A stretch of DNA of 64,000 nt, from assembly GCA_045118155.1 (NCBI GenBank), contig JBGUXS010000014.1, positions 18,630-82,629 on the forward strand. Reading direction: 5' to 3'. Of this stretch, positions 18,829 through 19,042 are shown in pieces. This stretch comes from Alphaproteobacteria bacterium. Its GTDB lineage: Bacteria; Pseudomonadota; Alphaproteobacteria; CAAHEQ01; UBA3637. Both the position numbers and the translations under genes were made by a program. Below the pieces are notes generated by a model. That model saw only the letters and a program-made list of their open reading frames with translations, was not told the DNA's origin and searched no databases. Each line of letters opens with the position of its first letter. Within the stretch, counting starts at the first letter, position 1.

Positions 18829-19028
18829 GGCAGGGTGGTGTCTGCCCCGAGGGTTCAAAGCCTCTTCTGTGGTTGCCGAGTACCATCGGCGTAAAAACTC
18901 CTTCTGGTCTATGACTGGAAGGAGGCTAATAAGTTAAAGGGATCACTCCCTTTTCAACAAATACGCCCACTATTCCACAGAGTAGCTTTGAACTTCCAGT
19001 CGCCTTTTACACCAAAGGCGATTTTTTC
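18829..19028 (+). promoter_or_regulatory. highly structured leader RNA / candidate ncRNA (long-range P1 helix enclosing three hairpins, ends in terminator before the methyltransferase RBS)
   Basis: 18853-18861 pairs 18985-18993 (GTTCAAAGC/GCTTTGAAC), 18867-18872 pairs 18975-18980; internal hairpins 18875-18890, 18898-18924, 18937-18952; upstream hairpin 18829-18846. Confidence 0.5.
19001..19028 (+). terminator. intrinsic terminator 14 nt upstream of methyltransferase SD/ATG
   Basis: CGCCTTT-TACACC-AAAGGCG followed by ATTTTTT. Confidence 0.65.
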
Positions 19029-19042
19029 GTTGGAGGGGAGTA

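Follow-up and report, generated by a model that had tools for sequence, protein, structure and literature searches.

A type II restriction-modification cassette inserted behind thrS

A type II restriction-modification (R-M) operon lies on the forward strand of a 64,000-nucleotide stretch of contig JBGUXS010000014.1 from an Alphaproteobacteria bacterium (this whole stretch is called the window, and coordinates are counted within it), and its first gene is preceded by a structured leader RNA of ~200 nt (18827 to 19031, plus strand), which extends from the predicted transcription start (+1) to the end of a U tract. The operon encodes an EcoRI-like N6-adenine DNA methyltransferase (19043 to 19996, plus strand; Pfam PF13651, E = 2e-104; PADLOC MTase_II) with a Shine-Dalgarno sequence, GGAGGGG, at 19032 to 19038, and a restriction endonuclease candidate with GmrSD_N/DUF262 and HNH domains (20010 to 21245, plus strand; Pfam PF03235 and PF01844). 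The nuclease matches the full length of the PADLOC model for type II restriction enzymes (REase_II, E = 3e-96) and accompanies the methyltransferase at every locus with enough DNA 3′ of the methyltransferase gene. No open reading frame (ORF) of at least 50 amino acids was found on the plus strand between 18735 and 19042.

The promoter, the leader RNA, and the two genes form an inserted cassette (18761 to 21252, plus strand), for which the strain represented by L087, a contig from another sample, has an empty site. Window positions 15176 to 18760 correspond to L087 1 to 3579, and positions 21253 to 27003 to L087 3611 to 9361, both at 97.5 to 98% identity, with ~2.5 kb in the window in place of 31 bp in L087. 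There, thrS has a normal terminator and is followed directly by an Hpt-like gene (window 21313); in the window, thrS (16794 to 18734) is the upstream neighbor of the cassette. The insert begins at the promoter of the RNA, ends 7 nt past the nuclease stop codon, and carries no recombinase gene. Because a 98%-identical strain has an empty site and the RNA precedes orthologous methyltransferase-nuclease operons elsewhere (see below), the RNA is part of the R-M cassette. Its ties are with the R-M genes rather than with thrS, and it is the leader of a horizontally acquired type II R-M operon. The link to thrS read-through drawn in an earlier note, made from the letters of the window alone, is thus accidental, the element being absent from the sister strain. 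We also considered and rejected conservation of the RNA as an element 3′ of thrS, since it tracks the R-M genes instead; relatives with 87 to 89% identical ThrS have other downstream genes and no trace of the RNA, while a GTDB genome scan with ThrS returned only relatives at ≤50% identity.

At the left junction, the thrS terminator hairpin (window 18750 to 18785) lacks a U tract and is followed by AAATAATAC, where L087 has GGGGGATTTTTG. Having lost its U tract to the insertion, this terminator may let thrS transcription continue into the cassette. The similarity of this junction to the promoter of the downstream Hpt gene is best explained by a shared promoter consensus.

The leader folds into a four-way junction followed by a terminator

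Using RNAfold, the minimum free energy (MFE) of 18822 to 19032 was −82.3 kcal/mol, compared with −55.1 ± 4.2 kcal/mol for dinucleotide shuffles (z = −6.5; 0 of 200 shuffles as good). The folded leader, a four-way junction plus a terminator (18827 to 19031, plus strand), is a real feature of the window, in which it occurs in a single copy. All base pairings listed in the earlier note are present and were recovered by RNAfold, with one correction: the hairpin at 18898 to 18924, read there as a 7-bp stem with a 13-nt loop, has an 11- to 12-bp stem and a 3-nt loop.

The 5′ hairpin P0 (18829 to 18846; GGCAGG-loop-CUGCC) is followed by two closing helices, P1 (18849 to 18861 with 18985 to 18996; 12 pairs) and P2 (18865 to 18872 with 18975 to 18982; 7 pairs). 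These enclose the hairpins P3 (18875 to 18890) and P4 (18898 to 18924) and a GGC/GCC helix (18924 to 18967) around the variable P5 hairpin, which lies at about 18933 to 18958; the conserved loops UAAUAAG and AAUAYGCC flank the GGC/GCC helix. P4 (−16.3 kcal/mol) has the form CUCCUUCUGGUC-UAU-GACUGGAAGGAG and includes two G·U pairs. We refer to its 5′ arm (18898 to 18909), which pairs using G·U wobbles, as region 1 and to its 3′ arm (18913 to 18924) as region 2. All of these elements are given for the plus strand. The minus strand folds just as well, and the RNA was assigned to the plus strand because the G·U pairs in P0, P1, P4, and the terminator, together with the U tract and the promoter, point there.

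A σ70-type promoter, TTGCCA-N17-TATTCT, was noticed earlier, and a consensus scan placed it at 18791 to 18819 (plus strand) as a prediction. An element of the form TTGCNN-N16/17-TAAYCT is present at equal distance in all eight cassettes that carry the RNA. Sequence conservation begins sharply at AAGGCAGG, 7 nt past the −10 hexamer, where the predicted +1 (about A18827) is located. At the other end, a terminator scan confirmed the strong intrinsic terminator before the methyltransferase gene (18998 to 19028, plus strand; stem-loop 18998 to 19023, U tract 19022 to 19027). It is kept in 8 of 8 cassettes, with the methyltransferase ATG 11 to 16 nt after the U tract, and in the window it ends 14 nt 5′ of the methyltransferase Shine-Dalgarno/ATG. 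The space between the U tract and the ATG is too short for a separate methyltransferase promoter. An internal promoter was also rejected: the TTGAAC in the 3′ strand of P1 is not conserved (GGTACTAC in locus L126) and has no −10 element. The P0 loop UGGUGU (18836 to 18841) is complementary to the terminator loop ACACCA (19009 to 19014), with a duplex energy of −8 to −9 kcal/mol, and variation in the terminator loop is limited to A/G opposite U, matching the P0 loop pairing. This suggests a kissing interaction, which may stabilize the four-way junction fold (state 1) or the terminated RNA.

The direct repeat CTTGYCAAGGC described in the earlier note is real (18790 to 18800 and 18821 to 18831; 2 found versus 0.03 expected in the window) but is absent from the other seven cassettes and is not part of the element. 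It is apparently a local feature and looks like a ~31-bp duplication of the start of the RNA through which the −35 region was rebuilt. Public gene calls for the methyltransferase (L088 3501, L209 2501, and L211 1313) reach 20 to 30 codons upstream into the leader and terminator, giving proteins of 335 to 344 amino acids instead of 314 to 318 from the conserved MGN start. Such overextended calls would conceal the RNA from surveys of intergenic regions.

The RNA recurs with the R-M genes and its helices covary

Homologues were reached via homologues of the methyltransferase and then by covariance models (CM), which yielded eight closely related sequences and two or three distant ones. The same RNA was found directly 5′ of the methyltransferase-nuclease pair in seven further distinct cassettes (eight in total), at four or more different chromosomal sites: between an aldolase gene and infC (L088, L126), between ftsZ and hflX (L209), after a metallophosphatase gene (L211), and on metagenome contigs (L130, L133, L140). 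These leaders, including that of the window, constitute class A (CM scores of 194 to 236 bits). In L209 (3510 to 4625), nuclease homology ends at residue 375 of 411 and no gene has been called, while the RNA and the methyltransferase gene are intact; judging from this sequence, L209 may have lost the HNH motif and be a decaying cassette that retains its leader.

Within class A, the alignment has 98.4% of its cells paired and 14 pairs changed on both sides, which 0 of 500 shuffles matched; sliding the partners lowers pairing to 31 to 56%. Since the alignments were fitted to the model, the pairing values are somewhat inflated. The compensatory changes of class A sit in P1, P2, and P3, as in P3, where GCCGA/UCGGC alternates with GCCAA/UUGGC and GCUAA/UUAGC; P0 and the terminator are invariant and P4 nearly so. 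In addition, L105 (39.7 bits) and L127 (18.3 bits), both distant homologues, were picked up by a second model (R2). With these added, 97.9% of cells are paired, 30 pairs are changed on both sides, and every helix, including P0 and P4, shows compensatory changes. In P1 and P2, every cell is paired in class A, with changes on both sides at 10 pairs, or at 14 with the distant homologues. The helices proposed from the sequence of the window alone therefore covary strongly in related loci.

The L127 RNA is located 5′ of the gene for a methyltransferase (70% identical) and that for its nuclease. In L105 (1816 to 1972, minus strand; identical to L233 8443 to 8599), on an IMG/VR contig, the RNA has no terminator and is followed by the gene of an ABC exporter, with an EcoRI-like methyltransferase and a PLD-family nuclease encoded in the divergent direction. 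BLAST searches of plasmids and phages with the RNA gave no match, and pattern scans of viral contigs recovered only L105/L233.

The RNA shares a compact mobile cassette, which has no recombinase gene, with an adjacent HNH protein, and this raises the question of whether it guides or scaffolds the nuclease (HEARO/ωRNA-like) or serves movement of the cassette. This view is largely refuted and appears highly improbable. There is no Rfam HEARO match, and the guided_IscB score of 19.7 bits (cutoff, 175) comes from the HNH motif only, the protein having no RuvC domain. The variable segments of the RNA are base-paired and covarying rather than free, guide-like ends, and the homologous RNA of L105 precedes an exporter gene. 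An integron attC site was likewise rejected, as P1 is unlike RYYYAAC or GTTRRRY and covaries freely. The idea that GACTGGAAG is a recognition site or operator is not supported: its only occurrences in the window are the two in the leader, with no sign of avoidance, and class C keeps a 70%-identical methyltransferase yet a different P4 sequence.

A second, mutually exclusive fold resembles sRNA-Xcc1

A second fold of the leader was overlooked in the earlier note. Part of region 2, GACUGGAAG (18913 to 18921), is the exact Watson-Crick complement of a segment that we call region 3, CUUCCAGUC (18993 to 19001, plus strand), to which region 1 is a rival that pairs with the same arm using two G·U wobbles. 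Region 3 takes in four bases from the end of P1 and four from the start of the terminator stem; it is shared by the P1 base, the outer helix of the second fold, and the 5′ arm of the terminator. An equivalent helix of different sequence is found in L105 (GGUUGGAGG/CCUCCAACC), where the upstream copy likewise includes wobble pairing, and in L127 (CGGAUGU/ACAUCCG), where it overlaps the terminator. In this second fold (state 2), two more invariant segments pair locally (CUAUUC/GAGUAG and GAGG/CCUC), and the GGC/GCC helix around P5 is common to both states. That regions 2 and 3 each have several partners accounts for the invariance of P4, region 3, and the terminator next to the free covariation of P1 to P3.

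State 2 forms a three-way junction (18913 to 19009, plus strand) like that of sRNA-Xcc1 (RF02221). These 3′ 97 nt matched the whole RF02221 model (positions 1 to 87 of 87) with 31.5 bits (E = 2.7e-4), and L105 and L127 matched in the same register with 33.5 and 32.2 bits, all below the gathering score of 53 bits. When 18913 to 19009 is isolated, the three-way junction is the MFE structure (−30.4 kcal/mol, z = −4.3), and isolated 3′ segments, including those of homologues, give the same junction (z = −3.8 to −4.4). Shared with sRNA-Xcc1 are the outer 9-bp helix (18913 to 18921 with 18993 to 19001), a 6-bp hairpin 2 (18970 to 18975 with 18980 to 18985), and hairpin 1, represented by the GGC/GCC helix with its AAUA-rich internal loops (GGC-N-AAUA … GAAUANGYCC), as well as a joining strand resembling UUUGAAC and the CC-U-rich tail. 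The window element, L105, L127, and the sRNA-Xcc1 copies L245 and L246 all have the core GGC-N-AAUA … (G)AAUANG(Y)CC, and when 2 Mb were searched with a descriptor combining this core with a complementary outer helix, only these RNAs matched. The kinship emerged only upon scanning short subsegments: an Rfam scan of the 64 kb at gathering thresholds and an E-value scan of 401 nt gave nothing credible. No family match was made by eye in the earlier note, but the 3′ half of the RNA is distantly related to sRNA-Xcc1.

L245 (2498 to 2580) is a bona fide sRNA-Xcc1 (72.6 bits) on a Pseudomonas aeruginosa plasmid, beside a Tn3/mer transposon and ~35 nt 5′ of a BRO family gene. L246 (2002 to 2077), a BLAST and descriptor match, is in the ninE-ninG region of an Escherichia coli phage-plasmid. 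Both have a short upstream segment that, as read from the sequence, is able to pair with the 5′ strand of the outer helix. A search beside bona fide sRNA-Xcc1 copies for the 5′ domain of the window RNA gave no match. Like the window element, sRNA-Xcc1 is found on mobile DNA directly 5′ of an accessory and often toxic gene on the same strand: it precedes symE in the most widespread Xanthomonas integron cassette, where its transcription is independent of Pc (bioRxiv 10.1101/2025.06.18.660453), precedes an ORF6N-domain gene in APSE phages (bioRxiv 10.1101/2020.03.17.996009), and is multicopy in Xylella (PMC12189769).

The differences are considerable. The window element adds a ~86-nt 5′ domain (P0, the 5′ strands of P1 and P2, P3, and region 1), which makes the four-way junction possible, and it has an intrinsic terminator overlapping the outer helix, with an R-M operon downstream. 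Its predicted +1 is located ~86 nt 5′ of the outer helix, unlike in X. campestris, in which the ~88-nt transcript was mapped as starting there; the RNA of the window may be processed to a shorter form. Because of the score below threshold, the large extra domain, and the terminator, we did not file the element under RF02221. It is an extended, bistable variant related to sRNA-Xcc1, not a member of the family.

This kinship bears on the possibility that the terminated transcript of ~200 nt is itself the product, a trans-acting RNA of the sRNA-Xcc1 type that serves as an antitoxin or nuclease inhibitor or regulates host or cassette mRNAs, with the terminator mainly keeping the RNA well in excess of the mRNA, as it does in type III toxin-antitoxin loci. 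Such a role seems unlikely to us. It would agree with the mapping of sRNA-Xcc1 as a discrete 88-nt RNA in Xanthomonas campestris (PMC2996969), with the position of sRNA-Xcc1 5′ of the toxin gene symE, and with the finding that the RNA is more conserved than the proteins, with long invariant stretches versus 65 to 81% methyltransferase identity. Type III toxin-antitoxin loci (ToxIN, CptIN) share with the cassette the order of promoter, noncoding RNA, intrinsic terminator, and toxic gene, but the window RNA has no tandem repeats, and the enzymes are a DNA nuclease (HNH) and a protective methyltransferase, not an RNA-processing endoribonuclease. Complementarity to the translation start of the nuclease gene was rejected, as duplex energies lie within ~1 standard deviation of shuffled targets with no common site, and none is conserved beyond shuffled controls. 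A trans-acting RNA also would not need a conserved helix overlapping its own terminator.

Leaders at related methyltransferase loci

A different leader, class B, is present at L131, L135, and L177, whose methyltransferases are 61 to 75% identical; the nuclease is 49% identical in L131 and L135, and L177 ends within the methyltransferase gene. In class B, a local hairpin, CCCCGA/UCGGGG, competes with a long-range, terminator-overlapping pairing, GGUCGGGG/CCCCGACC (GGACGGGG/CCCCGUCC in L131). RF02221 is the top but weak Rfam match of this class (21 bits).

L136 (~200 to 330) and L137 (~230 to 350) have three palindromes, ATGTCTAWATMGACAT, 5′ of a methyltransferase gene of 55 to 57% identity. They are probably C-protein-type (C-box-like) operators, judging by sequence, at the site that the RNA occupies elsewhere. 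Some other relatives have no obvious RNA before the methyltransferase gene. The palindromic operators at the same spot in RNA-less relatives indicate that this position hosts R-M control elements, and the control position before the operon thus appears to be filled by interchangeable devices. L132 has tandem EcoRI-like methyltransferase genes (1902 to 2837 and 3001 to 3921) before one nuclease gene.

Possible conditional termination of the R-M operon

R-M systems must stop the nuclease from outrunning the methyltransferase. The leader is best read as a cis-acting conditional terminator of the R-M operon, in which the sRNA-Xcc1-like fold would be the read-through state; we put the probability of this reading at roughly 0.55. 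Transcription would start at ~18827 from the cassette's own promoter. In state 1, P0 and P1-P2 around P3, P4, and P5 would leave the terminator free, and transcription would stop 14 nt before the methyltransferase ribosome-binding site. In state 2, region 2 would leave region 1 and pair with region 3, closing the sRNA-Xcc1-type three-way junction; this would take the first four bases of the terminator stem (AGUC), and polymerase would read into the methyltransferase and nuclease genes. The logic would be that of an anti-antiterminator (1:2), an antiterminator (2:3), and a terminator (3:4). In this way the leader would keep a self-toxic module low and would probably respond to an effector. In L105, which has no terminator, the C/U-rich region 3 lies 30 nt before the ribosome-binding site, and a translational version is conceivable. 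We infer the start and stop of transcription, the read-through from state 2, and switching in vivo.

Several observations argue for this arrangement. The free energy of the terminator hairpin is weakened from −11.7 to −7.0 kcal/mol once AGUC is sequestered and the U tract displaced, so that state 2 should permit read-through. As in known attenuators, a conserved, structured 5′ leader and an intrinsic terminator stand before the first gene, and a mutually exclusive helix overlapping the terminator is maintained, as seen from L105, L127, and class B, being invariant within class A. The earlier suggestion of a riboswitch-like leader acting by attenuation or as an independent small RNA (sRNA) is supported by the covariation, the membership in the cassette, and this overlapping helix. 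Attenuation by a leader peptide was rejected: a UUG/GUG ORF starting in the P0 loop is present in all eight leaders, but it has 18 to 50 codons, and neither its frame nor its stop is conserved.

Other observations weigh against conditional termination. State 1 is favored over state 2 by 13 to 20 kcal/mol in every class A member, with an equilibrium probability of ~4e-14 for the outer helix, and P4 has ample time to fold before transcription reaches region 3. Unless a strong effector intervenes, termination would be the default, and switching requires such an effector, kinetic trapping, or processing of the 5′ domain. The genes found beside members of the wider family (R-M, ABC exporter, symE, BRO/ORF6N) indicate no single metabolite. 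The switching helix is invariant in class A, and its covariation comes from two or three distant homologues in model-fitted alignments. The RF02221 matches fall short of the gathering score, and the promoter, the +1, and termination are predictions.

The thermodynamic dominance of state 1 would suit a constitutive attenuator or insulator that is always in state 1 and terminates most transcripts, including those reading through from thrS, leaving a trickle of methyltransferase-nuclease mRNA. The sRNA-Xcc1-like complementarity would then be an inherited remnant or serve the stability or translation of the read-through fraction. Insulation would be useful since the thrS terminator lost its U tract at insertion, and R-M systems need low, buffered expression. 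We nevertheless consider this quite improbable. A simple hairpin would suffice for such a purpose, and the state 2 helix remains perfect although its sequence differs among class A, L105, L127, and class B, which points to pairing having been selected in each lineage. Conservation of the junction nucleotides extends to bona fide sRNA-Xcc1 copies. Conditional termination is the reading that we retain.

Genomic surroundings

The tetranucleotide TCGA occurs 5 times in the window (1 to 64000; at 15225, 25840, 45909, 55581, and 58060) versus 91 expected, and three of the five are inside tRNA genes. This avoidance is equally present in the empty-site strain L087 and therefore points to long-standing, TaqI-like restriction pressure unrelated to the cassette. 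Genes for an ankyrin-repeat protein (13438 to 14472) and a TrbC/VirB2-like pilin (23698 to 24162) flank the region. These genes, together with ThrS relatives that are alphaproteobacterial metagenome-assembled genomes, suggest a host-associated alphaproteobacterium.

Relation to known control systems

Region 2 of the leader can pair with region 1 or 3, and region 3 with region 2 or the terminator (4), as in PyrR-type and trp-type attenuators; the role of antiterminator falls to the helix that closes a three-way junction, a feature shared with ON riboswitches (for example, the pbuE adenine riboswitch). In contrast to these systems, the leader has no Rfam match of their kind (a PyrR hit of 20.6 bits, E = 1.5, comes from the hairpin/terminator layout) and no conserved leader peptide, and its anti-antiterminator state is unusually dominant.

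Control of R-M systems by C-protein/C-box circuits, by autorepression of the methyltransferase, and by the antisense RNAs of EcoRI and Eco29kI is established. To our knowledge, the control devices of R-M systems are proteins (C proteins or autorepressing methyltransferases) or antisense RNAs. The window RNA occupies the same control position, immediately 5′ of the operon, but its cassette has neither a regulator gene nor operator palindromes, and control would be exerted by the structure of a sense-strand RNA and termination. Our literature search found no description of R-M control via RNA structure and termination, nor any account of sRNA-Xcc1 as cis-regulatory or tied to R-M systems. What is new is the second, mutually exclusive fold and the R-M control context for a relative of a known RNA family.

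If true, the leader, a structured sense-strand RNA that contains its own terminator and has a conserved second fold, would amount to RNA-only control of restriction-modification on a compact mobile cassette. It would also provide a functional handle on sRNA-Xcc1, which is widespread on integrons, phages, and plasmids, namely, a closing helix that competes with a terminator. One may speculate, although we think it doubtful, that the sRNA-Xcc1 fold is a sensor domain, an orphan riboswitch aptamer or a site for a cellular factor, that gates costly or toxic mobile cargo such as R-M systems, SymE toxins, BRO/ORF6N proteins, and exporters. The title of the report by Chen et al. in 2011 is said to call sRNA-Xcc1 a trans-acting sRNA. 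Were the sensor idea correct, this "trans-acting virulence sRNA" would become a cis-regulatory switch, R-M control of a riboswitch-like kind would be seen for the first time, and the element in the window, with its competitor strand and terminator, would be the first visible expression platform of sRNA-Xcc1.

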